Source: a virus (taxonomy: Duplodnaviria; Heunggongvirae; Uroviricota; Caudoviricetes). From it: a DNA stretch of 10,407 nt. Made by a program: the position numbers and the translations under genes. The stretch lies in IMG/VR virus record IMGVR_UViG_2695420809_000010, positions 1-10,407 of that record, one strand, 5' to 3'. Shown here one piece after another: positions 1-10,407 of this stretch. Within the stretch, counting starts at the first letter, position 1; each line of letters starts with the position of its first letter. A model generated the notes under the pieces. It had not been told where the DNA came from. It saw only the letters and a program-made list of their open reading frames with translations, and searched no databases.

Positions 1-273
1 CTCACGACGCGCCAGAAAATTGTTTCGTTCTGGCTGGGAGTGGCTTTCACGGAATGCCGCCATCCACACGGTTGCAGCACGACGGTATAAGCCCCTGGAC
101 TCCAGTTCTTCCGCCTGGCGGGTCAGGCACAAAATCACACGGGGATCGTTAGTGCCGACATAGAAATTGCGCACAGGTCTGGTTTCTCGAACTGGTTGTG
201 GTTCCGGTTCCTGCGCTCTCTCAGTCAGGCGCGGGAAATGTCTGCGTGTATCTCCTTCACAACGGTGAGCCAC
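1..273 (-). CDS. Possible 5' part of a minus-strand CDS running off the window start; product unknown
   Basis: The minus-strand frame is stop-free from 351 down to position 1 (117 codons). In-frame candidate starts are GTG 273..271, GTG 174..172 and ATG 63..61. It is absent from the ORF track because it leaves the window. It overlaps the + ORF 198..383 and a 57-codon minus ORF 398..225, so the true coding frame is unresolved. Confidence 0.3.
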   Translation of the reverse strand, partial: MAHRCEGDTRRHFPRLTERAQEPEPQPVRETRPVRNFYVGTNDPRVILCLTRQAEELESRGLYRRAATVWMAAFRESHSQPERNNFLARRE

Positions 274-413
274 ACGCCCACTCTGACGTAACTTGCTTGC
301 TGACTGCAGAACGCGCTGCCGTGAGTAACCTGCAAAAGCATCCGCAATGTCTCAGGAAGTACATCCCGGATGGGCTTCAATGAATTTCTGAACTTCATTC
401 AAAAGACTCATGA

Positions 414-1232
414 TCACCCCCTGAATCCTGCCGGGATCTGGCTGTAGTCCACGTTGTCGTAACTGGCTTTGAAGTACGGGTCCTCGCGTCTGGCTGCAGA
501 TACCGCAGGAACTTCCCAGGATTCTTCGAAATGACGATCTGGACCAAAGAACGTGACAGCCTGTTTCACAAATTGTGTGCCGCTATTGCCCATCGCAGAT
601 ACCCAGCCCGCGTAGCGTTTCACACCTTCCAGCATGGTTTCGGGGTTTACCCCCTCGTTCAAACGGGCTTTCCAGGCTTTGAAGGCTGCAGATTTTGAAT
701 TGCCACCAGCACGTTTGGGATATGCCAGCCATGCCTGCTCAAACTCCGGAGAGTATTCCGGTCGGTTTGAACGAACTCGCACGGACTCATCAACTGATGC
801 ACCAACAGCTATTGGTTCATTGACTGGTTCTTTGACTGGTTCAAAAGAGTGACTGGTTCTGGGTGAATCTCCTGCACTACCCCCTGGTGCAACTCCTGCA
901 CTACCTGGTGAATTTGCTGCACCAGATAGTGAATTATTTGCACTACCCCCTAGTGAATCTCCTGCACCATCCAGATGAAGGAGATAGATATTACTTGAGT
1001 TACCTTTTTCACCTTTCCGGGTGACTTTTTTTACCAGCCCGGAATCACAAAGGGCCGCAATATGATTCATCACAGAACGTTTGCTAATCTCGCACTGGTC
1101 AGCAATATGCTGGTAGCTGGGCCAGCACTCACCCTGATCGCTGGCATTATCAGCCAGCTTGATCAGAACCAGTTTTCGCAATGGATTACCCACTCGAATT
1201 TTCATCGCTTTAACCATCAGCTCCATACTCAT
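414..1232 (-). CDS. Phage replication initiation protein (O-like / DUF1376-type): N-terminal winged-HTH, low-complexity Gly/Ser/Ala linker, C-terminal DnaT-like domain
   Basis: 272-aa ORF. N-terminus (LVLIKLADNASDQGECWPSYQHIADQCEISKRSVMNHIAALCDSGLV) looks like the wHTH of phage replication initiators; C-terminus (EFEQAWLAYPKRAGGNSKSAAFKAWKARL) resembles the DnaT-like domain. Start ATG overlaps the upstream stop (ATGA at 1229..1232). Last gene of the Cro-side operon, the expected position for an O-like gene. Confidence 0.7.
   Translation of the reverse strand: MSMELMVKAMKIRVGNPLRKLVLIKLADNASDQGECWPSYQHIADQCEISKRSVMNHIAALCDSGLVKKVTRKGEKGNSSNIYLLHLDGAGDSLGGSANNSLSGAANSPGSAGVAPGGSAGDSPRTSHSFEPVKEPVNEPIAVGASVDESVRVRSNRPEYSPEFEQAWLAYPKRAGGNSKSAAFKAWKARLNEGVNPETMLEGVKRYAGWVSAMGNSGTQFVKQAVTFFGPDRHFEESWEVPAVSAARREDPYFKASYDNVDYSQIPAGFRG
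821..970. repeat. Direct-repeat cluster inside the replication gene linker; candidate origin iterons
   Basis: Three copies of tgactggttc (821..830, 833..842, 850..859), then degenerate ~22-bp repeats built on ctgcactacc(ccc)tRgtg (872..889, 896..910, 938..955) and gtgaatctcctgcac twice (863..877, 953..967). This is the inter-domain linker, where lambda places its origin within O. Confidence 0.4.
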
Positions 1233-1465
1233 GCTGCACCTCCGAGATGCTTCATGTTTTTTCCGGAGCGAAAGGCTATAAGCGGCATACTGACGCGGTA
1301 ATTACGGCCCAGCGGTTCACAAACCACCTTCTGACATTCACGGTCAACCAGGCTAACACGTAGAACATGCCCTGCAGGCGTGGTGTACCACTGCCCAACT
1401 GTAGGAATTGATGTTTTTTTACGCTGAAGCAAACGGCAAATATTGAGGATCAACGGATTAAGCAT
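1229..1465 (-). CDS. Hypothetical protein, 78 aa, three Cys; translationally coupled early-operon gene
   Basis: ATG 1465..1463 overlaps the end of the upstream ORF (stop 1460..1458) and its stop overlaps the start of the replication gene. No family recognised. Confidence 0.5.
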   Translation of the reverse strand: MLNPLILNICRLLQRKKTSIPTVGQWYTTPAGHVLRVSLVDRECQKVVCEPLGRNYRVSMPLIAFRSGKNMKHLGGAA

Positions 1466-2294
1466 GACGATGCCCTCCGCTGATATTCAGGAGACGGTGA
1501 ATATGAAAATTAGCCTTATCCGCCAAACGGATACGTTCAGCCTGCAAGTTAAGAAGGGTTTCTACCAGAACCTGATGCGCCTGCGGATCCGAAAGAGTTA
1601 CCTTGCGCAGAGCACGTAGTGCAGTTGTTACATAACTGAGTTTATGTAAGTCTTCATCATTCAGACGAGTGAGGGCTGGGACAGTAGCCATGATGGCAGC
1701 CTCCGATAACAGTGAATTACCTTCACCACCGGAAACGCCAATTTCGCTGGTGGTGAACTGAACGGGGTTGGCGTAACCGGCGTTATCGGAAACCGGCGCA
1801 CCTTTCAGTGCCCCCGTCCAGCCCACCATAATTTGGGTGTGCGCAGACGCAGACGATAAAAAAGACGCTGGCGCGTCATATATCGCCGATAACATTTCCA
1901 GGACGCCAATCCCGGCACCCGCTTTATAAGGTGCCTGAACAGTGTAACGTCCCGGAATGGCAGAATCAATGTGCTGGTGGTCCTTCACACTCAACAAAAT
2001 CACGCCTGAATTTCCACAAAGGACTAAAGCACTCATGCGGGTAGTCTTTGCGAAGATAGATAACGCGCTGTGTTTCTGGCTCCCAACGAATAACATGAAC
2101 ATAAAGTCCTCTTCCGTCACGAAACCAGCGGTTAAGTTCCTGCACAACTCGCCCCCCACAGTCAGGTAAAGTTCTCTGTGGTTACTTACAGCCAGGAGAT
2201 TTGGTAATCTGCATTCATGCCGTAACAACAGGTGTTCAGCGACGCTGACCACCAGCTGTTGCGACAAACGGTTATTTGCCGTTAAACTGTTCAT
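1458..2294 (-). CDS. Hypothetical protein, 278 aa, function unknown
   Basis: Long ORF with ATGA start/stop overlap to the CII-like gene (2291..2294) and an 8-nt overlap with the next gene. Contains glycine-rich segments (CGNSGVILL, YKAGAGIGVLEML) that might mark a nucleotide-binding fold, but I cannot assign a family. Confidence 0.65.
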   Translation of the reverse strand: MNSLTANNRLSQQLVVSVAEHLLLRHECRLPNLLAVSNHRELYLTVGGELCRNLTAGFVTEEDFMFMLFVGSQKHSALSIFAKTTRMSALVLCGNSGVILLSVKDHQHIDSAIPGRYTVQAPYKAGAGIGVLEMLSAIYDAPASFLSSASAHTQIMVGWTGALKGAPVSDNAGYANPVQFTTSEIGVSGGEGNSLLSEAAIMATVPALTRLNDEDLHKLSYVTTALRALRKVTLSDPQAHQVLVETLLNLQAERIRLADKANFHIHRLLNISGGHRHA

Positions 2295-2842
2295 GCGTTA
2301 GTTTCTCCACAGACACAAAACGCCACGACGCCCGGAGCTGCACACTCGCGGGCGTCACTCTTTTCTGGAGCGCAAAAGATTTTGTAGACCAGTGCTGCAT
2401 GCTCCTGGAGCTTCGAAATTGACAGATACAACTCATCATTAATTGCTGTCTGCTCGTGTGGCTCCACTACCCCATCTTCGATTGCCGAACGAATCTGCTT
2501 TGAGTAACTCCCGATCTGTTCGATGACTTCCAGCAGGCGCTGGTTTATATCGGCGTTCTCTACTTCCTCAATTTCAGGAAGCGATACAAACACCCCACCA
2601 GCAGACTGTGCGACAGCATCCGCAATGTAGTGAGTGCCAGCCGCGCGCTGTAAAATCATTGCCCATCCCAGCGGGAAAATCTGATCGCCATCTGCACGAA
2701 GGCGGTTGAATAAAGCGTTCTCTGTTACATCTAGCCACTCAGCAGCTTCAGCGTACCCCCCCGGCAACGCCGCGATAGTTTTTCTGACAGCTTTCACGTA
2801 CCACTCAGGCTGTTTTTCCACTTTCCAGTGATGCTTACCCAC
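2291..2842 (-). CDS. Phage regulatory protein, CII (CP76) / YdaT-like, 183 aa
   Basis: Sits directly after the Cro-like gene. GTG start at 2842 is preceded by a strong SD (AGGAGG, 6-nt spacer). The central region (AEWLDVTENALFNRLRADGDQIFPLGWAMILQRAAG) resembles, from memory, the phage-186 CII / YdaT family; I could not verify this by search. Confidence 0.55.
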   Translation of the reverse strand: MGKHHWKVEKQPEWYVKAVRKTIAALPGGYAEAAEWLDVTENALFNRLRADGDQIFPLGWAMILQRAAGTHYIADAVAQSAGGVFVSLPEIEEVENADINQRLLEVIEQIGSYSKQIRSAIEDGVVEPHEQTAINDELYLSISKLQEHAALVYKIFCAPEKSDARECAAPGVVAFCVCGETNA

Positions 2843-3095
2843 GGCTTACCTCCTGTTCCTGTGGTTTAAACCCATTCTGGTTTTGGCTAGATTGAAAACG
2901 TGCCGGATAAAGAATCTGCATTTCGCTGATTTCACCCTTAAAAAAATTGGCCAGACGTTCTGCAAGATCGATAGATGGAATTTGTTCCAGTCTTTCAATA
3001 CGACTCAGCGTCGCTGGATTGACCTGAACGCCAGCAGCAACATGCTGCAAAGTAAATCCGTGCGCCTTACGCACATTCCGTAATGGTGATTGCAT
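2835..3095 (-). CDS. cro: Cro-like XRE-family HTH regulator, 86 aa
   Basis: HTH motif (GFTLQHVAAGVQVNPATLSRIERLEQIPSIDLAERLA). Divergent from the CI-like repressor across a 97-bp operator region. SD GGAGG lies 4 nt before the ATG at 3095. Confidence 0.8.
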   Translation of the reverse strand: MQSPLRNVRKAHGFTLQHVAAGVQVNPATLSRIERLEQIPSIDLAERLANFFKGEISEMQILYPARFQSSQNQNGFKPQEQEVSRG

Positions 3096-3192
3096 ATGAC
3101 CTCCACATATTGCGTGATGAGCATATTATTTCACGCAAATATTTTGCGCAAGTTGATTTGCTTAACGCGCAATAAAGAAATGTAATAAACGC
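3096..3192. promoter_or_regulatory. Divergent promoter/operator region of the immunity switch (OR-like: PR toward cro, PRM-like toward cI)
   Basis: Minus-strand promoter: -35 TTGCGC (plus 3146..3151), 17-bp spacer, -10 TAATAT (plus 3123..3128). Plus-strand candidate: -35 TTGCTT (3158..3163), 17-bp spacer, -10 TGTAAT (3181..3186), placing the start at or near the cI ATG. Five CGCAA/TTGCG half-sites in 97 bp, including the inverted pair TTGCGTGA (3110..3117) / TCACGCAA (3131..3138), the palindrome TTGCGCAA (3144..3151), and TTGCTTAACGCGCAA (3158..3172). Confidence 0.6.
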
Positions 3193-3885
3193 ATGAACAT
3201 AGGAAATCGAGTCAGACAACTTCGCCAGGCGAAGAACATGAAAATCGCCGATCTCGCTGAAGCAATAGGAGTGGATGCGGCGAATATCTCACGCCTGGAA
3301 ACAGGTAAGCAGAAACAATTCACTGAACAAGCCCTGAGTAATATTGCCAGGAGCTTAGGTGTTGATATTGCTGATCTCTTTACCTCAGACTTCAAAAGTA
3401 ATACTGTATGTAAAAACAGTATTAGTGAGGATGTTGCGCAGGTGAAGGATGTATTCCGTATTGAAATGCTGGATGTCAGTGCCAGTGCGGGAAATGGCCT
3501 TATCCAGGGCGGTGATGTCATTGATGTGATTCATGCCATTGAATACAGAACTGATAATGCTGTATCGATGTTTGGCGGACGACCAGCCAATCACATTAAA
3601 GTTATCAACGTTCGTGGGGACAGTATGTGTCCAACCATTGAGCCAGGAGATCTCATCTTCGTTGATGTCAGTATCAATCAGTTTGATGGAGATGGTATCT
3701 ATGTATTTGGTTTTGATGATAAAATTTATGTCAAACGACTGCAAATGATACCTGACAAACTACTGGTGATTTCTGATAACCAGATTTACCGTGAATGGGG
3801 AATTACCAGCGAAAATGAACACCGGTTTATGGTCTTTGGAAAGGTCTTAATCAGCCAGTCACAAACCCTTAAGCGACACAATTAA
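3193..3885 (+). CDS. cI: CI-type prophage repressor: N-terminal XRE HTH plus C-terminal S24 (LexA-like) autopeptidase domain, 230 aa
   Basis: N-terminal HTH (IADLAEAIGVDAANISRLETGKQ). C-terminal domain carries the Ser motif (RGDSMCPTIEPGDLIFVD) and a downstream Lys (YVKRLQ), as in LexA/CI. No SD precedes the ATG, consistent with a leaderless maintenance transcript. Confidence 0.9.
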   Translation: MNIGNRVRQLRQAKNMKIADLAEAIGVDAANISRLETGKQKQFTEQALSNIARSLGVDIADLFTSDFKSNTVCKNSISEDVAQVKDVFRIEMLDVSASAGNGLIQGGDVIDVIHAIEYRTDNAVSMFGGRPANHIKVINVRGDSMCPTIEPGDLIFVDVSINQFDGDGIYVFGFDDKIYVKRLQMIPDKLLVISDNQIYREWGITSENEHRFMVFGKVLISQSQTLKRHN

Positions 3886-3905
3886 CCCTTACCTCCTCAT
3901 CAATT

Positions 3906-3927
3906 AGCCACCCGAAGGTGGCTTTTC
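3906..3927 (+). terminator. Intrinsic terminator downstream of cI
   Basis: Stem AGCCACC (3906..3912), loop CGAA, stem GGTGGCT (3917..3923), followed by TTTTC; 20 nt after the cI stop. Confidence 0.75.
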
Positions 3928-3940
3928 ATTACCCATCAAA

Positions 3941-3992
3941 TTGCATATCTCGCAACAAAACACTTGCACAATGCGCAATTTCATTTTATCTT
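3941..3992 (+). promoter_or_regulatory. OL/PL-like operator-promoter region for the plus-strand early operon
   Basis: Two 15-bp sites of the form TTGC-N7-GCAA (TTGCATATCTCGCAA at 3941..3955; TTGCACAATGCGCAA at 3964..3978), matching the OR site at 3158..3172. Possible -35 TTGCAC (3964..3969) with a weak -10 near 3987..3992. Exact promoter elements are uncertain. Confidence 0.45.
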
Positions 3993-4403
3993 TCTTTCCA
4001 GACCAACAAACAAGGTACTAACAAAATTTGGTTGTAACACGGCGTATGGCACATGCGTCGTTAGCGGTCTGGGGACGTTAAAGGGGACAATCCACTCCTT
4101 GCTCGGGCAAACAAACCAGGTAGCCGGAATGTGCAAGTCAATGATGATGCTGATAAGACGCCTAACCAGCGTGGCGATCCGGTTTGACGCCTGGGAAGAG
4201 ACCAGGGGGCAACGATGAGGGCATTTATGGAGCCGCGACAAAGTGTGGTGCCGTAACTGGCTAAGTGCTCTCAGCGTTGTGGTAATCCGCGAAATGGCGC
4301 GGCGGTAAGTATGGCGGGGTTACTCTTTCCCCGTTGAGGACACCGGATTGTCAGGTTGACCATACGCCTGAGTGACAACCCCACCACAACAGCCACTGCT
4401 TTG

Positions 4404-4450
4404 GCGGTACCAGTTTGTACACTTGCTTCCGGCTGGTACCGCTCTTTTTA
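4404..4450 (+). terminator. Terminator-like hairpin within the leader upstream of the yfdP-like gene
   Basis: Perfect 10-bp stem GCGGTACCAG (4404..4413) / CTGGTACCGC (4433..4442), 19-nt loop, followed by TCTTTTTA (4443..4450). Confidence 0.45.
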
Positions 4451-4538
4451 CAAAACAGAGAAGAGCATCACCGGACGACGGGCTCATAACCCAATCCATC
4501 CGGGCGGCTGCCACCGCAGGTGTTCTTCTCTGTTTTGT
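4450..4538 (+). repeat. 15-bp perfect inverted repeat with 59-nt spacer in the leader RNA
   Basis: ACAAAACAGAGAAGA (4450..4464) is the exact reverse complement of TCTTCTCTGTTTTGT (4524..4538). It lies immediately after the terminator-like hairpin and about 50 nt before the yfdP-like start. Confidence 0.6.
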
Positions 4539-4586
4539 GGAGAAACCAACCGACCTTGCAGGGTCGATATGATGAGGAGCAGCAAA

Positions 4587-4949
4587 ATGGCTAGCGAACG
4601 CAGTACTGATGTGCAGGCATTTATCGGGGAGCTGGACGGCGGCGTATTTGAAACCAAAATCGGCGCAGTTCTCAGTGAAGTCGCTTCCGGTGTGATGAAC
4701 ACGAAAACCAAAGGGAAGGTCTCACTCAACCTGGAAATCGAACCATTTGATGAGAACCGTGTGAAAATCAAACACAAACTCTCATATGTTCGCCCGACTA
4801 ACCGCGGGAAAATTTCCGAAGAAGACACCACCGAAACGCCGATGTATGTCAATCGCGGTGGTCGCCTGACTATTCTGCAGGAAGACCAGGGACAATTACT
4901 GACTCTTGCCGGTGAACCTGACGGAAAACTCCGCGCAGCAGGTCATTAA
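4587..4949 (+). CDS. yfdP: YfdP-like prophage early protein, 120 aa, function unknown
   Basis: Internal ATG at 4587 preceded by SD GAGGAG (4574..4579, 7-nt spacer). The track's longer ORF from 4356 runs through the structured leader and has no SD. The 120-aa length and the MASERSTDVQAF N-terminus match my recollection of K-12 YfdP. Confidence 0.7.
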   Translation: MASERSTDVQAFIGELDGGVFETKIGAVLSEVASGVMNTKTKGKVSLNLEIEPFDENRVKIKHKLSYVRPTNRGKISEEDTTETPMYVNRGGRLTILQEDQGQLLTLAGEPDGKLRAAGH

Positions 4950-5014
4950 TATCGTTTTTAATAAACTGATTATTTCTCTCATCACTGAATATTTTTATAT
5001 AGTGAGGACTTATT

Positions 5015-5839
5015 ATGTCTCAGAACTTAGACTCATCCGCAATTAATCAAATCCATGCCCTTATTTCTGCTCAGGGTGTTAATGAAATTATCAGTAAGAT
5101 TGGTGCCGATGCTGTGGCATTGCCTGAGAATTTCCGCATTCATGATCTGGAAAAATTTAATTTAAATCGCTTCCGTTTCCGAGGTGCGCTTTCCACTGCA
5201 AGCATCGATGACTTTACCCGTTATTCTAAAGATCTTGCAGATGAAGGCACCCGCTGCTTTATCGATGCCGATAATATGCGAGCCGTCAGTGTGCTTAACT
5301 TGGGTACTATTGATGAACCAGGTCACGCAGATAACACCGCCACTCTCAAACTGAAAAAGACAGCACCGTTCTCTGCCCTGTTGTCTGTTAACGGCGAGCG
5401 TAACTCCCAGAAGTCACTGGCAGAATGGATTGAAGACTGGGCCGACTACCTTGTGGGCTTTGATGCTAATGGTGACGCTATTCAGGCAACAAAAGCGGCT
5501 GCGGCAGTCCGTAAAATTACGATTGAAGCAAACCAGACCGCTGATTTTGAAGATAATGACTTCAGCGGCAAACGCTCCCTGATGGAGTCTGTCGAAGCGA
5601 AGACCAAAGACATTATGCCAGTGGCATTTGAATTTAAATGCGTTCCGTTTGAAGGCCTGAAAGAACGTCCGTTTAAATTACGCCTCAGCATTATCACTGG
5701 CGATCGTCCTGTACTGGTTCTGCGCATTATTCAGCTGGAAGCAGTCCAGGAAGAAATGGCTAACGAATTTCGTGATCTGCTTGTTGAGAAATTCAAGGAC
5801 AGCAAAGTAGAAACCTTTATTGGTACTTTCACCGCCTGA
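5015..5839 (+). CDS. yfdQ: YfdQ-like DUF2303-family prophage protein, 274 aa
   Basis: 274-aa ORF with SD GTGAGGA 5 nt before the ATG. Length and sequence agree with my recollection of CPS-53 YfdQ, and it is followed by the yfdR-like gene as in K-12. Confidence 0.8.
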
Positions 5840-5851
5840 TTTCATTACTGC

Positions 5852-5873
5852 AAATGCCCCTGCGGGGGCATTT
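5852..5873 (+). terminator. Intergenic hairpin between the yfdQ-like and yfdR-like genes; weak or partial terminator, or an mRNA-stabilising structure
   Basis: AAATGCCCC (5852..5860), loop TGCG, GGGGCATTT (5865..5873): a perfect 9-bp stem. There is no clean U-tract beyond the stem, so termination is probably partial. Confidence 0.4.
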
Positions 5874-5966
5874 ATGGAAACGTAATTGACTCAATAATCG
5901 CCGGATGGTGAGTGCTTCCTTTTACCATAATCCAGCGCGGTGCAGCGCATATACGTGGAGAACAAA

Positions 5967-6503
5967 ATGTCATTTATTAAAACTTTTTCCGGGAAGCATT
6001 TTTATTATGACAAGATAAATAAAGATGACATCGTTATTAACGATATCGCGGTTTCCCTTTCAAATATCTGTCGCTTTGCCGGTCATCTTTCGCACTTCTA
6101 CAGCGTCGCCCAACATGCGGTTCTTTGCAGCCAGCTGGTGCCGCAGGAATTTGCTTTTGAAGCGTTAATGCATGATGCAACAGAAGCGTATTGCCAGGAC
6201 ATTCCCGCACCACTGAAACGCCTTCTTCCTGACTATAAACGGATGGAAGAAAAAATAGACGCCGTAATCCGTGAGAAATACGGGTTACCCCCAGTTATGA
6301 GTACACCCGTGAAATATGCCGATCTCATCATGCTGGCAACCGAACGCCGCGATCTCGGGCTTGATGATGGCTCTTTCTGGCCTGTACTGGAAGGCATCCC
6401 GGCAACAGAGATGTTCAACGTGATTCCACTGGCACCGGGCCATGCCTACGGGATGTTTATGGAACGTTTTAACGATTTATCGGAGTTACGCAAATGCGCA
6501 TGA
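5967..6503 (+). CDS. yfdR: HD-domain phosphohydrolase, YfdR-like 5'-deoxynucleotidase, 178 aa
   Basis: ATG at 5967 with SD GGAG (5957..5960); the track's ORF begins at an upstream GTG (5940). HD-domain signature spacing is present (H..H then D in AGHLSHFYSVAQHAVLCSQ...LMHDATEAYCQDIP). Confidence 0.85.
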   Translation: MSFIKTFSGKHFYYDKINKDDIVINDIAVSLSNICRFAGHLSHFYSVAQHAVLCSQLVPQEFAFEALMHDATEAYCQDIPAPLKRLLPDYKRMEEKIDAVIREKYGLPPVMSTPVKYADLIMLATERRDLGLDDGSFWPVLEGIPATEMFNVIPLAPGHAYGMFMERFNDLSELRKCA

Positions 6504-6856
6504 ATGTTCTCGAAATGGAAGGGTTTCTTCGCGGGAAATGTGTACCGCGAGATCTGAAAGTGAACGAAACAAATGCTGAGTACCTGGTACATAAATTCGA
6601 CGCGCTTGAAGCTAAATGTGCGGCACTGGAAAACAAAATAATACCAGTGTCAGCTGAACTGCCACCAGCAAATGAAAGTGTTCTGTTATTTGATGCTAAC
6701 GGAGAAGGCTGGCTGATTGGCTGGCGTTCTCTCTGGTACACCTGGGGACAAAAAGAAACCGGAGAATGGCAGTGGACATTTCAGGTCGGGGACCTTGAAA
6801 ACGTCAATATCACTCACTGGGCAGTAATGCCGAAAGCACCGGAGGCGCGAGCATAA
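6494..6856 (+). CDS. yfdS: YfdS-like prophage protein with a DUF551-like C-terminus, 120 aa
   Basis: Start overlaps the yfdR-like stop; SD GGAG 9 nt upstream. C-terminal region (GEGWLIGW...ITHWAVMPKAPE) is paralogous to the C-terminus of the next gene. Confidence 0.75.
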   Translation: MRMNVLEMEGFLRGKCVPRDLKVNETNAEYLVHKFDALEAKCAALENKIIPVSAELPPANESVLLFDANGEGWLIGWRSLWYTWGQKETGEWQWTFQVGDLENVNITHWAVMPKAPEARA

Positions 6857-7635
6857 TGATCACGTTTACCGACAAAGAACTGATTAAAGAAATCAAAGAG
6901 CGCATAGGAAGCCTGGATGTGAGAGACAATATTGAACGCCGCGCTTATGAAATCGCACTGGCATCGCTGGAAGAGGATCCGGTGGCATGGCTGCATTCAG
7001 ACAATGGCTTAGGTATTCCGGCAATAACCAGGAGTAAAAACATTGCTGACAGTTGGTTATCAAAGGGCTGGTATGTTCAGCCGCTATATATAGCCAAGCC
7101 AGTACCAGTGGCGCCAGATGCTCGTCCGTCTTTAAATAATGGCATAGTCGGTTTTGATGAAGGCTGGAACGCCCGCCGCACCGCCATGATTCATGGTGCC
7201 GTACCTGCAAGCCAGGCTTACAAGTTGCCACAAACGCAGTTTAAACAGGTTGCTGACCTCTACGAAATGCAATTTGATGACGGTCGCACTTGTACCTTTC
7301 ACACTGATGCGCAAAAGGCTGTGCAATGGCTTCAGGCGTGCGACGGAAACAGGGTTCAGGAATACGTTAAGCTGGAACGATTGCAGAACGCACTGTCTGG
7401 CAACTCTCCGGTAATTCCGGATGGTTGGATAAGCTGTAGTGAGCGAATGCCGAACGATAAACAGTATGTTTGGTGTTGGGGTAAGTCTTACGGCTGGACT
7501 GAGTGCGATACCTTCGAAGGGTATTACGATTGGTCGAGAAACAAATGGTGGGCAGTTACTGACGATGGGGAAGAACCGGCATCGAAAGTAACCCACTGGA
7601 TACCGCTACCGGAGCCGCCGCAGGAGGTGAAGTAA
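6856..7635 (+). CDS. yfdT: YfdT-like protein with C-terminal DUF551 domain, 259 aa
   Basis: TAATG overlap with the upstream stop; SD GGAGG 8 nt upstream. C-terminal W-rich domain ends in THWIPLPEPP, typical of DUF551 phage proteins. The N-terminus (MITFTDKELIKEIKERIG) matches my recollection of K-12 YfdT. Confidence 0.75.
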   Translation: MITFTDKELIKEIKERIGSLDVRDNIERRAYEIALASLEEDPVAWLHSDNGLGIPAITRSKNIADSWLSKGWYVQPLYIAKPVPVAPDARPSLNNGIVGFDEGWNARRTAMIHGAVPASQAYKLPQTQFKQVADLYEMQFDDGRTCTFHTDAQKAVQWLQACDGNRVQEYVKLERLQNALSGNSPVIPDGWISCSERMPNDKQYVWCWGKSYGWTECDTFEGYYDWSRNKWWAVTDDGEEPASKVTHWIPLPEPPQEVK

Positions 7636-7829
7636 TGAACAACTTAATGACAACAAAACAAGTTGCCGAATTCTGTGGCGTTTCAGTATCGACAGTTCTT
7701 CGCTGGAACAGCGTAAACAGGAGAACTGGCCAGAAATACAGGCCTGACTTTCCAGATCCTGATATTAAATCCTGCCCAAATAAATGGGCATCACGCAAGA
7801 TATACAGGTTTGCTGGAGTTATTGAGTAA
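7635..7829 (+). CDS. Excisionase-family (Xis/AlpA-like, HTH_17) DNA-binding protein, 64 aa
   Basis: TAATG overlap with the upstream gene; strong SD AGGAGGTGA. The motif TKQVAEFCGVSVSTVLRW is the typical excisionase/AlpA winged-helix. It is the last gene of the plus-strand early operon, the usual position for xis. Confidence 0.75.
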   Translation: MNNLMTTKQVAEFCGVSVSTVLRWNSVNRRTGQKYRPDFPDPDIKSCPNKWASRKIYRFAGVIE

Positions 7830-8050
7830 CGTGTATTATCTCAGATGGGAGCTGACACATCTATGGCACAGAGCCAAACCTAATCTGACAGCTTGCGCTA
7901 TGCTGTGAGTTCAACGGGTCGATGCAACGCTATCCTTGAACAACGGGGAACAGCTCAGTCAGCTGGTGCGCCCGGCGGCGATTCTTGATGTACGCGCTGC
8001 AAGATACTGTCACTTTAGACAATCTGCAAAACATATCACGACCGACTTTT

Positions 8051-8138
8051 CACAATAAGTGCGCACTATTGTGAATTGAATTCTGGAAGTATCGCCTAGT
8101 TATATAACGTTAACTGATTGTTTTTTCTAGCGTAGAAT
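8051..8138 (+). promoter_or_regulatory. Putative promoter with an upstream near-perfect palindrome (operator candidate) for the small orphan gene
   Basis: 23-bp palindrome CACAATAAGTGCGCACTATTGTG (8051..8073), imperfect by one extra A, with a perfectly palindromic AGTGCGCACT core. Candidate promoters: -35 TTGAAT (8076..8081) with -10 TATATA (8101..8106), or -35 TTAACT (8110..8115), 17-bp spacer, -10 TAGAAT (8133..8138). Confidence 0.4.
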
Positions 8139-8151
8139 GAGGGATTTATCG

Positions 8152-8340
8152 ATGAAAGAAGAACTGATTGAACTATACAAAGACTCCTTACTTTTAGGAA
8201 AATATATTGAGCTGGAACATATTGCTAATGGCATGTTACCAGGCCTATTTCCTGGAAAGGAACTAGAAGAACTTTCTGACAAGGAGTTAATTGCATTAAC
8301 TAAAGCCGTAATTACAGGTATGACCTCGTGGCTGTGCTAA
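8152..8340 (+). CDS. Hypothetical small acidic protein, 62 aa, in the AT-rich islet
   Basis: ATG at 8152 preceded by SD GAGGG (8139..8143, 8-nt spacer); the track's ATG at 8137 lacks an SD. A palindromic terminator follows 15 nt after the stop. No family recognised. Hand-counted GC is about 37%, lower than flanking phage genes. Confidence 0.5.
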   Translation: MKEELIELYKDSLLLGKYIELEHIANGMLPGLFPGKELEELSDKELIALTKAVITGMTSWLC

Positions 8341-8354
8341 TACTGATTAAAACT

Positions 8355-8370
8355 GGCGGCATATGCCGCC
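8355..8370. terminator. Perfect 16-bp palindrome between the convergent orphan genes; candidate bidirectional terminator
   Basis: GGCGGCATATGCCGCC is identical on both strands: a 6-bp GC stem with AUAU loop. The minus-strand transcript continues into AGUUUUAAU; the plus-strand tail is less U-rich. Confidence 0.55.
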
Positions 8371-8444
8371 ATAATACAACTAACTCGAACAGCCTGCCGT
8401 AGGCGTTATCTTCAATGGTCAGTGGTTATAGCAATACCCTCTCG

Positions 8445-8996
8445 TCATGAATATCGGAGATTTAGTCGGGAATACAGCCTTTCTATCTCATCGACAACTT
8501 TGCTAAACTCTTTGGCTAATTTGGGTGGCAATTCAATATGCCCATGCTGGTTCGCTAGGTCACCAGTATTTAATATTTCAAAACGTTTTCTAGCAAGATA
8601 CAACCATCTGATCACATCAGGATCATTTACAAGAGCCTGGCGGATATTGTCTACCTGCTGCCCCCTATAAATCCGCGTACTATCAGGTAGAAATAAAATA
8701 TTTTCCGTACGATAAGGATATGGCGTGATATCCAGCATTTCTCCAGCATCATTCTCCCAAATACAGTGGAACTCAGCTTCAATATAAACTCCCGGTACCT
8801 GCCAGATAGCCCAACCGTAAACAGCTCTTCCGCCATTCTGTTCAATCACCATTTCAACATTCGAAAAGCAGTCCATAACTTCCGCTCCCGAGAAAGGTTC
8901 ATTTTTAATCAATACAGCATGAGCATCAGGAACAACTTGCAGACAAAAATTCAGGGTTTCAGGCGTATCTAACTGTGCGGGTATTGGATGGTGCAT
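8445..8996 (-). CDS. Hypothetical protein, 183 aa, function unknown; orphan gene in the integrase-proximal islet
   Basis: ATG at 8996 with SD AAGGA 5 nt upstream. Lies 188 nt downstream of the integrase stop on the same strand and converges on the 62-aa gene. AT-rich relative to the phage core. No recognisable domain. Confidence 0.6.
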   Translation of the reverse strand: MHHPIPAQLDTPETLNFCLQVVPDAHAVLIKNEPFSGAEVMDCFSNVEMVIEQNGGRAVYGWAIWQVPGVYIEAEFHCIWENDAGEMLDITPYPYRTENILFLPDSTRIYRGQQVDNIRQALVNDPDVIRWLYLARKRFEILNTGDLANQHGHIELPPKLAKEFSKVVDEIERLYSRLNLRYS

Positions 8997-9183
8997 AGCA
9001 TTCCTTACATTAGAGCTAAATGGGAGGTTTGTAGTAAAGGACTTGCAGATAATGTCATCGCTGGCGAAGTTTTGGTTTCATTGACTGCTTATCTGTGTCT
9101 GCTCACTTATCAATCAATAGTTTTACTGCAATCTGGCGACACCGTTTGTATAAGAATATCCGTTCCTAGCTCAGAGCGAACTA

Positions 9184-10407
9184 TCAGTTGGTGTCTGAGT
9201 TAGTACAAGTAACGATCGATTCAACTCTCTCCCACCATGCCAGGTAAGCTTTACGCTGTTCTTCTAGATAATCGCTCTTATCATAAACTTGCCATACCCC
9301 TGGCAGTTTATGACCTAGCATTATTTCTGCAATATGCGGCGCAGTAAGATCAGAAAAGTTTGTTCGTGCTGTTCGCCTCAAATCATGAAGAGACCAATGA
9401 GGGAATTGATACCCCAAACGCCGCCATGCGTACTGCATTAAATTGTAAGGCAGCGACTGCAATGATGTCCGACCAACGGGTTCCCTGCTTCCTTCCTTAG
9501 TAAAAAGCATATCGGAACCATTGTTCATAGAAATAGCGTACTTTATAAGCTCTTCAACCGGTTCAATAATGGGCCGCTTTAGCGGTTCGCCTGTTATGTC
9601 CCCTGTCTTATGTCGTTCAGGTGGTACAGTCCATACCTTATTTATGAAATCAAAATCACCCACCCTAGCAGTAATTAGCTCCGAACTACGGCAACCAAAA
9701 TGCAGTAATAGTTTAATGAAGGCCCGGTATTTGGGAACCATTCTAGAGCCATCGATCGCAGCATAAAGAATTTTAATTTCATCGTGTGTCAGAAACCGTT
9801 TCTTCTGACCTTTACGGATATCCATATCTTTACCCGTGATATCCGACAGCGGGCGAGTTTCAATAAGCTTTCTCTTATACGCCCAGACATGGGCCTGCTT
9901 TGCGTTAATTAGCAATCGGTCTGCTATTGCTGGAGTCTTAGTGCTAAGAGGCTCCAGGACTTCTAACCAATCATGCAATGTAGCTGCATCGTGAGGGATA
10001 TTCCCGATTTTAGAGAACAGGTGCAACTCAAACGAGCGGAGTATCTGTTCAGAACCCTTTTTATTTTTTACACAATATGCTTCATACCAGGCACGGATCA
10101 CAGACTCTACCGTCATGGCTTCAGTAGCTTTTCGTTTTTCAGCCTGCTTGACCAATCGTGGATTACGGTTTGACTCGAGTTCACCACGGAGACGGATAAC
10201 TTCTTCTCTGGCCTCTTTTAATCCAGTTGCCGGGTAAGTTCCGATATCAAGACGCTCACCTTTCCCTGCCCATTGATAACGATATTGGAACACTACGCGA
10301 CCTTTCGGTGATACTCTGACAGACAGACCATCACGATCGGATTTAACCAAAACCTTATCACGTTCCTTTCCAACGACTGAACGCAACCACGCATCAGACA
10401 GCGCCAT
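9184..10407 (-). CDS. int: Tyrosine site-specific integrase, P4-type (DUF4102 arm-binding N-terminus plus catalytic domain), 407 aa, complete
   Basis: N-terminus (LSVRVSPKGRVVFQYRYQWAGKGERLDIGTYPATGLKEAREE) has the DUF4102 pattern. Catalytic residues are in the expected order: R (HFGCRSSEL), H-x-x-R (HDLRRTART), and Tyr in LGHKLPGVWQVYDKSDY. The start ATG is at 10405..10407, the window edge. Confidence 0.95.
   Translation of the reverse strand: MALSDAWLRSVVGKERDKVLVKSDRDGLSVRVSPKGRVVFQYRYQWAGKGERLDIGTYPATGLKEAREEVIRLRGELESNRNPRLVKQAEKRKATEAMTVESVIRAWYEAYCVKNKKGSEQILRSFELHLFSKIGNIPHDAATLHDWLEVLEPLSTKTPAIADRLLINAKQAHVWAYKRKLIETRPLSDITGKDMDIRKGQKKRFLTHDEIKILYAAIDGSRMVPKYRAFIKLLLHFGCRSSELITARVGDFDFINKVWTVPPERHKTGDITGEPLKRPIIEPVEELIKYAISMNNGSDMLFTKEGSREPVGRTSLQSLPYNLMQYAWRRLGYQFPHWSLHDLRRTARTNFSDLTAPHIAEIMLGHKLPGVWQVYDKSDYLEEQRKAYLAWWERVESIVTCTNSDTN

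Follow-up and report, generated by a model that had tools for sequence, protein, structure and literature searches.

The stretch of 10,407 nucleotides (nt) analysed here (the window; positions 1 to 10,407 of the IMG/VR virus record IMGVR_UViG_2695420809_000010, Caudoviricetes) is 100% identical to a prophage of Escherichia coli TUM12357. In the PGAP annotation of that prophage a cro-like gene and the repressor gene cI are followed by 701 bases (3886-4586) without any annotation, and then by yfdP, yfdQ, yfdR and other early genes (Table 1); the RNA encoded by these unannotated bases is the subject of this paper. The same gene layout is found in mEp460, SfII and many other phages, and therefore the region is the early-left side, that is, the side of the early-left promoter (PL), of an SfV/mEp460/cdtI/ST64B-type lambdoid prophage which has no N gene. 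The bases from about 3999 to 4586 are the untranslated leader of the repressor-controlled early-left operon, and this leader is a chain of conserved and covarying RNA modules, namely a multi-helix domain (U), a long helix (H1), a cloverleaf-like module (M) or a tRNA in its place, a terminator-like hairpin (T), a three-way junction, a small hairpin (P4) and the Shine-Dalgarno (SD) sequence of yfdP. A preliminary description of the same DNA had proposed a protein-free, structured regulatory leader in the place of N, and this idea was largely right; all features that it listed are present, at its positions or at most 1-2 nt away, the start codon of yfdP being at 4587 and not at 4588. The most conserved parts of the leader, which are the U domain and the tRNA-like modules, and their occurrence outside PL leaders go beyond that description.

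No N-like gene is located between cI and the first early gene in the window, mEp460, SfII, mEp390 and phage L140, and in these phages the leader occupies the position of N, as had been supposed. That a yfdP-type phage lacks N was noted in the LLS paper, in which a put-like RNA was raised as a speculation. Exact TTGC-N7-GCAA sites number three in all, one in the cI-cro spacer (3158) and two just after cI (3941 and 3964), the latter two being the left operators (OL). The putative PL, found by eye and scoring below the threshold of a promoter scan, overlaps the second of these operators, and transcription would start at about 3999; in mEp390 a consensus promoter (TTGACA-17-TACATT) stands at the same distance upstream of the U domain. 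The repressor transcript is ended upstream of PL by the cI terminator, and the record of phage SfII annotates a terminator at the equivalent position. In addition, phages with other immunity regions are 99% identical to the window starting at about 4020, that is, the homology starts just past the operators whatever the immunity type, and therefore the leader is a module of its own.

Table 1. Genes, control sites and RNA modules at the early-left side of the prophage (positions in the window).
Feature	Positions	Strand	Basis and remarks
cro-like gene	2835-3095	-	PGAP annotation of the identical prophage
S24/XRE repressor gene cI	3193-3885	+	PGAP annotation of the identical prophage
cI terminator, AGCCACC-CGAA-GGTGGCT and T-run	3906-3929 (hairpin 3906-3923)	+	Terminator scan
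Two OL operators, TTGC-N7-GCAA	3941-3955, 3964-3978		Exact motif match; inverted repeat
Putative PL	-35 TTGCAC 3964-3969, 17-nt spacer, -10 TATCTT 3987-3992	+	By eye
U domain, multi-helix	4039-4206	+	Alignments, RNAalifold
Hairpin Ua, CGGCGUAUG-GCA-CAUGCGUCG	4039-4061	+	Within U domain
Hairpin Ud, CCUGG-GAAGAGA-CCAGG	4190-4206	+	Within U domain
H1, long helix, CAACGAUGAGGGCA with UGCUCUCAGCGUUG	4210-4279 (strands 4210-4223 and 4266-4279)	+	Fold, z -3.0
M, cloverleaf-like four-way junction with three arms	4279-4387	+	Fold, z only -1.2
T, intrinsic-terminator-like hairpin, 13-bp stem, loop 15-19 nt, then C and U5	4403-4449 (stem 4403-4443, U5 4445-4449)	+	Fold, -21.2 kcal/mol, z -4.5 for the stem
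Three-way junction (class A)	4445-4543	+	Alignment, RNAalifold
P1 of the junction	4450-4469 / 4519-4538	+	Extended by U-run 4445-4449 paired with invariant GGAGA 4539-4543
P2 of the junction	4471-4477 / 4497-4503	+	Invariant apical loop ACGGGCUCAUAACCCAAUC 4478-4496
P3 of the junction, variable	4504-4507 / 4514-4517	+	Junction helix
P4 hairpin, CGACC-UUGCAG-GGUCG	4551-4566	+	Conserved UGCAG/GGCAG loop
SD GAGGAG and yfdP ATG	4574-4589 (SD 4574-4579, ATG 4587-4589)	+	PGAP, sequence; end of the leader
yfdP	4587-4949	+	PGAP; then yfdQ, yfdR, other early genes, excisionase-like gene, integrase

The three-way junction was aligned in 50 distinct sequences, in which 92% of the cells are paired, compared with 43-55% when the partners are slid; in 20 pairs both partners are changed, and none of 500 shuffles reaches the observed values. 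In P4, all four stacked pairs have compensatory changes in the 50-sequence alignment. The covariance model of the junction gives 135 bits on the + strand and 33 bits on the - strand. Furthermore, in a survey of loci encoding YfdP relatives in 31 species, the DNA corresponding to 4445-4552 is 80-88% identical in Enterobacter, Kosakonia, Phytobacter, Mangrovibacter, Leclercia and others, with the YfdP protein itself at 57-76%, and SfII has kept the junction and lost yfdP and yfdQ. The 15-bp inverted repeat 4450-4464 / 4524-4538, which the preliminary description had counted as part of a barrier to transcription, is indeed perfect and extends to 25 nt at 84%, but it is helix P1 of this conserved junction and not a separate barrier. 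Weak matches to the junction model (20 and 17 bits; E 0.005-0.03) lie upstream of yfdP homologues in the AT-rich Providencia prophages L029 (2377-2505) and L031 (2390-2502) and may be divergent copies.

The U domain was first indicated by two conserved blocks, 4038-4075 and 4159-4207, and begins about 40 nt past the putative PL in the window and past the consensus promoter in mEp390. For U together with H1, 46 pairs were predicted by RNAalifold from 18 diverse sequences, 20 of them with compensatory changes; several pairs of H1 are changed on both sides in the alignment, and the insert enclosed by H1 is variable in length and sequence. The joiners of the U core are invariant (AGCGGUC, GUAGCCGGAAUGUGCAAG at 4119-4136, CACCAGCGUGGCGA and GGUKUGAC), and so are further unpaired joiners of U and H1 (GUAUGGCACAUGC, CACCA.C..GGCGA, GGUGUGAC and GGGAAGAG). 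Hairpins without covariation in relatives had been named in advance as grounds against a structured RNA; covariation was found both in the junction and in U with H1.

Nearly the entire leader of about 590 nt is base-paired in the predicted fold, and 4395-4590 folds at -87.8 kcal/mol, compared with -57.0 ± 4.1 kcal/mol for shuffled sequences (z -7.6). Such a structure could be passive, that is, a shield from Rho and from 5'-end-dependent decay combined with processing sites for RNase III at the 20-25 bp of P1 and for RNase P at the tRNA-like modules, with no effect on polymerase or in trans. The extent of pairing and the near-perfect P1 helix of at least 20 bp would suit this function, as would the position of the junction, which stands just upstream of the first SD sequence in early and late leaders alike; the lambda N leader, too, has an RNase III site. 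However, shielding does not need invariant unpaired sequences with identities of up to 97% across genera, and it explains neither the terminators within the leader nor the spread of U to P1 and phiV10 described below, and a passive role is considered quite unlikely.

Protein-coding potential was also evaluated. The two mutually overlapping open reading frames to which the preliminary description had denied the status of genes, 3964-4218 (+) and 3981-4241 (-), exist as described. No leader reading frame has a Pfam match, and no arginine-rich translation was found when all frames of at least 20 amino acids in 3930-4590 were translated. In the homologues, stop codons interrupt each frame of a 35-codon core in 11-16 of 49 sequences, and insertions of 6 to about 45 nt are found in helix P3. 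Among the PHROG families, phrog_3651 matches at about 4320-4514 (-) (E 5e-38) and phrog_33599 at 4372-4569 (+), with no other PHROG matches, and hypothetical proteins are annotated in the leader region in several phage records. Two overlapping families on opposite strands are the pattern expected of reading frames miscalled over a conserved non-coding RNA, and both families appear to be built from such frames over the junction RNA. The 9-codon mini-reading frame to which a strong SD sequence had been attributed is also present (GAGGG 4217-4221, ATG 4227, TAA 4254), but at 4227-4256 it lies inside H1, its "SD" is part of one strand of that helix, and it is missing in more distant relatives such as L169. 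The PHROG matches and the hypothetical proteins could be taken as signs of one or more small proteins, possibly an N-like factor, encoded by the 84- or 86-amino-acid frames, by the minus-strand phrog_3651 frame or by the mini-frame. On the other hand, the two families lie on opposite strands of the same conserved DNA, the pattern of change is that of base-pair covariation, and the frames are broken as described above. Protein coding was therefore rejected as the function of the region, a small protein encoded there being a most improbable alternative.

Between H1 and T, the window has module M, the closing stem of which (GUGGU/ACCAC) can be extended to 4276-4283 / 4383-4390; compensatory changes were observed in arms 2 and 3 in the divergent copies L062 and L190, divergent copies being few. 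Many relatives have in the same slot a genuine tRNA-Arg(UCU) gene, which begins exactly where H1 ends, and in the IMG/VR contigs L166, L168, L169 and L171 this tRNA is followed by a T-like hairpin and then by a second, canonical terminator. The junction also shows likeness to tRNA, since 4479-4492 (CGGGCUCAUAACCC) in its P2 loop is identical over 14 of 14 nt to the anticodon arm of the E. coli initiator tRNA-Met, and the P3 loop of some relatives, (C/U)UCCUAAC, presumably resembles the anticodon loop of tRNA-Arg. Moreover, a compact version of the junction with a P1 of 6 bp and the same P2 loop, often followed by NCCA, is found in the leaders of late operons, where Q, tR' and in some cases tRNA genes precede it and the holin gene follows at a distance of about 100-250 nt (L035 2509-2574, which is Klebsiella phage GZ7, L036, L140 12006-12060, L040, L057, L071, L152 and L154); phage L140 has both the early-left and the late version. 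In these respects, the cloverleaf-shaped M, the real tRNA-Arg of the relatives, the initiator-type loop and the NCCA ends of copies adjoining tRNA genes, the leader is similar to phage tRNA modules such as the tRNA cluster and the stable RNAs C and D of T4. It differs from them in the size of M (about 110 nt) and in the junction, which is without D arm and T loop. ARAGORN found no tRNA in the window or in the compact junction copies, and the Rfam tRNA model gave no match in 3800-4700 at E ≤ 10; a tRNA identity of M and the junction was therefore rejected, and the mimicry is only partial.

The hairpin T was described correctly in advance as a terminator-like hairpin with perfect 10-nt arms (4404-4413 / 4433-4442) between promoter and genes. 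It is a G + C-rich hairpin immediately followed by a U-run, as in intrinsic terminators, although the large loop is atypical, and because of this loop of 15-19 nt it was missed by a generic terminator scan. T is the only strong terminator-like element on the + strand between PL and xis. In nearly all of the 50 homologues a run of the form CCGC-N(1-4)-U(5-7) precedes the junction, and the hairpin with U(5-7) is kept in relatives with different stem sequences. Among 66 distinct U loci, a hairpin with T-run is found 170-900 nt downstream of U in 63, compared with 29 in the upstream control, and 27 loci have at least two such elements. In L168, L169 and L171 the canonical terminator CGCCCGGUUCGCCGGGCAUUUUUUU is located about 10 nt before the SD sequence of the first gene, and therefore the genes behind this terminator are not expressible from PL without read-through.

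The reading favoured here, with reserve and from sequence comparison, is that U might well license the polymerase coming from PL to read through the leader terminator or terminators, as a functional analogue, not a homologue, of put or of the N-nut system. The U domain would emerge about 40 nt past the PL start, fold co-transcriptionally and act in cis on the polymerase, either directly or through host elongation (Nus) factors. The polymerase would then pass T, and in relatives the second strong terminator, into yfdP-yfdQ-yfdR and on to xis, and polymerases without U, for example those from upstream read-through, would stop at T. M or the real tRNA, and the junction, would most likely be cut out by tRNA-processing enzymes or RNase III. 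The regulatory 5' part would thereby be separated from the mRNA, and the latter would begin with a compact structure upstream of the first ribosome-binding site. The put RNA is active on the polymerase without being tethered through the transcript, and therefore cleavage at the tRNA would be no problem for the gate. In addition, mEp460 and mEp390, which both carry U, come from a collection of phages isolated as Nus-dependent, which points to a step of elongation control.

The lambda N-nutL system has the same map position between PL/OL and the early-left genes, and the same presumed task of making polymerase resistant to terminators with the help of host Nus factors in common with the leader, but in the leader no arginine-rich N-like protein, no boxA and no boxB-type hairpin was identified, and the element seems to consist of RNA alone. 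The search for an arginine-rich protein, which covered the frames of 3930-4590 mentioned above, was negative, and gp36 of mEp390 is likewise not such a protein; a factor encoded outside the window is conceivable. As to boxA (CGCUCUUA / UGCUCUUUA), the 13-nt rrn form has no match in the leader with up to 3 mismatches, and the 8-mer with 1 mismatch has a single one, GCTCTTTT at 4441-4448, where the T stem ends and the U-run starts; relatives do not conserve it. The sequence UGCUCUU, present in the 3' strands of both H1 and P1, was considered as a boxA of the rrn type and rejected: it covaries with its partner (variants GCCCUU, GUUCUU and GAUCUU), and therefore the pairing and not a boxA identity is conserved.

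The put RNAs of HK022 and HK639 are similar to the leader in being non-coding RNAs just past the early-left promoter and upstream of terminators in lambdoids without N, and HK639 has, as annotated, a put copy only in the left operon, as is the case with U. The first hairpin of U resembles stem I of put in its CGGCG/CGUCG stem, with the same G-U pair and a preceding CAUG. Nevertheless, put has about 70 nt and two stems, whereas U, of about 170 nt, has 4-5 helices, and H1, a tRNA-like module and the junction come after it; U is also found in P1 and phiV10. RNAs of the put type suppress termination in cis through the beta-prime zinc-binding domain of RNA polymerase, and no Nus factors are needed by HK022, whereas mEp460 and mEp390 come from the Nus-dependent collection. 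The preliminary description had offered the HK022 put type as one possibility, and as a family assignment this did not hold. Rfam has no put family, and HK022 itself gives no match there, and for this reason a separate covariance model was made from 9 put RNAs of 7 phages; it scores known put RNAs at 65-96 bits and has no match in 3941-4586 at E ≤ 10 with filters off, and none in the leaders of relatives. By this model, the leader does not have the sequence and secondary structure of put, which is made up of stem I and of stem II with the conserved GGCGGGUUCAGGAUGA...CAAU core. A blastn search with putL found no yfdP-type phage, and an nhmmer search was also negative. Homology to put was consequently rejected, the shared CGGCG...CAUGCGUCG hairpin being too little for such a claim. 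The put model also gave a match of 10 bits (E 1.7), which is at noise level, at 2201-2292 (-), just downstream of the ymfL/cII-like gene of the early-right operon, and likewise in mEp460; the position would correspond to putR.

Several points weigh against the gating of transcription by U. In P1-like plasmids U is followed by no terminator before the next gene, and the arrangement U-H1-tRNA-Arg-gp49, which phiV10-type phages have between head genes, is more in keeping with a free-standing RNA. HK022 has putL and putR, whereas no second copy of U or of the junction was found in the early-right operon of the window or in the late region of the same prophage, the PL copy being the only one. There is no canonical boxA in the leader, and any link to Nus is therefore indirect; the NusA dependence of the mEp phages could come from Q instead. 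T, with its very large loop and five U, may be a weak terminator which needs no special factor. Finally, the junction occurs also in late leaders downstream of Q-controlled terminators, and it is therefore not an antiterminator itself.

Another possibility is a conditional attenuator, riboswitch-like or factor-dependent, in which U would be a sensor (of a ligand, a protein, a tRNA or a small RNA) and decide the formation of T through pairing with the T loop. U is indeed aptamer-like, with about 170 nt, 4-5 helices, invariant junction nucleotides and variable peripheral stems, and the downstream "platforms" differ between the contexts of U. Candidate pairings exist: the invariant sequence 4122-4138 (AGCCGGAAUGUGCAAGU) with 4421-4434 at the T loop, and the T loop of the window (4414-4432) with the Ud loop (4193-4201); in relatives, the T loops are rich in pyrimidines and contain UUYCC(C), to which the invariant Ud loop GGGAAGAG is complementary. 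Contacts of the T loop with the Ud loop, with 4122-4138 or with GGAGA could be kissing or antiterminator contacts, the independent lineages being few. However, T is about 190 nt past U with two large modules or a tRNA between them, which is unusual for an aptamer and its platform, and the candidate complementarity differs between lineages. P1-type contexts are without a terminator after U, and the variable gene context does not suggest any ligand or factor. A conditional attenuator is thus held to be improbable.

U is found in places other than PL leaders as well. In P1, P7, D6, SJ46 and RCS47 it lies between tRNA-Ile and ban (a dnaB-like gene); for example, it is complete at 2501-2674 of L250 (the P1-like plasmid pUTAK-22-3), 12 nt past tRNA-Ile and about 70 nt before the start codon of ban, and the U of the P1 family is unannotated in every record seen. 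U-H1-tRNA-Arg with a gp49-family gene constitutes a module in L251 (2501-2818, a prophage of E. coli ECONIH2) and in L253 (phiV10), and in phiV10/epsilon15-type podophages this module is inserted between the portal and terminase genes in opposite orientation. In mEp390 (L252 2282-3062) the plan is a consensus PL, U, H1, T, a P1-type helix ending with GGAGAA, and P4, the insert within the P1-type helix being different and without the CUCAUAACCC loop. Exact-motif scans of IMG/VR gave at least 120 matches for the junction and at least 120 for U, and among the matches listed the junction lies downstream in about half of the U loci. Of 5426 complete E. coli genomes, 4769 (88%) contain some part of 3886-4600, and 1637 (about 30%) contain U with H1, which is annotated in none.

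These contexts bear on the view that the leader is a source of stable, processed, trans-acting phage RNAs. According to this view, PL drives a non-coding transcript of about 450 nt which ends at T, and U-H1, M and the junction are set free from it through cleavage at the tRNA or tRNA-like modules by RNase P and other enzymes of tRNA processing, to serve as decoys for tRNA-targeting defence nucleases, as sponges or as polymerase or ribosome binders, and yfdP and the genes downstream are expressed by leaky read-through. The movement of U into unrelated contexts (P1/P7, phiV10-type, lambdoid), always beside tRNA genes or tRNA-like modules, speaks for it, as do the end of H1 coinciding exactly with the 5' end of the tRNA, the NCCA after many compact late copies as in the 3' end of a tRNA, the 14 nt of the initiator anticodon arm in the P2 loop, the terminators downstream of U in 95% of the loci, and the high conservation of the unpaired joiners across genera, which suggests a conserved host partner. 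Against it, M and the junction are not recognised as tRNA by ARAGORN or the Rfam tRNA model, strict conservation is not seen for the three G-C pairs of the tRNA-like loop, and in relatives with strong terminators right before the first gene the excision and recombination genes would be starved without active read-through. Trans-acting RNAs are regarded as a possible but rather unlikely explanation, although they account almost as well as the gate does for the data, given the P1 and phiV10 contexts, the tight association with tRNA genes and the NCCA tails.

A broader and more doubtful proposal is that U-H1, M and the junction together could represent a new class of large, modular, tRNA-mimicking RNA in temperate enterobacterial phages (lambdoids including Stx2c phages, P1/P7 and phiV10/epsilon15-like phages), matured by the tRNA-processing machinery of the host. 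In such a class, U might reprogramme RNA polymerase or another conserved host machine, and the other modules might present mimics of anticodon arms, the arm of the initiator tRNA among them, to decoy or otherwise act against tRNA-directed host defences or the translation initiation apparatus.

Returning to the gate, it is of interest in connection with the lambdoids without N, for which, to our knowledge, early antitermination has been explained only in HK022 and HK639, through put RNA. The N-less phages concerned are a large group, including SfV and SfII (Shigella serotype conversion), ST64B, cdtI, Stx2c and some Stx2a phages, and mEp460, and the leader is a concrete and testable candidate for their missing antitermination function; this RNA probably controls whether the early phage genes are transcribed. 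Since PL controls the excision and recombination genes, the element may also influence the induction of toxin-converting prophages. At least two new RNA families are backed by covariation, and the leader is a case in which a tRNA-like fold and a real tRNA gene can take each other's place. In E. coli, the leader RNA is unannotated or miscalled as hypothetical proteins, and even in the well-studied P1 and P7 there is, upstream of ban, a conserved structured RNA that had not been described. The literature searched on the leader, on yfdP leaders and on the ban leader of P1 contained nothing relevant, and the element appears not to have been described so far.

As to other RNA families, Rfam 15 has no family at the gathering threshold in the leader in a scan of the whole window, and a permissive scan of 3800-4700 gave noise only. 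The leader is similar to ROOL and GOLLD in its length of several hundred nt, its multi-domain structure, its phage origin and its frequent location beside tRNA genes; it differs from them in having no Rfam match, in its Enterobacterales hosts and in being an operon leader downstream of a repressor-controlled promoter. The prophage small RNAs AgvB, AsxR, STnc100, PasD and Esr41, all of which are in Rfam, do not match the leader and were rejected as relatives, and the CACAACA motifs of the leader are helix strands, and therefore mimicry of GcvB targets is probably incidental. The C4 antisense RNA of P1/P7, which is excised by RNase P from the transcript that it regulates, resembles the junction in that the latter is a three-way junction with a long P1 in an operon leader, right after the U-run of a terminator. 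However, the two differ in the sequence of their loops, a search of the downstream genes, which are variable, gave no target complementary to the loops of the junction, and the C4 model and its clan have no match in 3800-4700 even at E ≤ 10, their only match being on the early-right side. There, in the early-right operon, a C4 antisense RNA (RF01695, 79.8 bits) at 1746-1833 (-) is located directly downstream of isrK (RF01394, 63.7 bits) at 1858-1934 (-), which has its terminator at 1877-1864; both RNAs lie under coding sequences that PGAP calls "ash family" and "DUF4222". The order of the isrK terminator and C4 in the early-right operon thus mirrors that of T and the junction in the PL leader.

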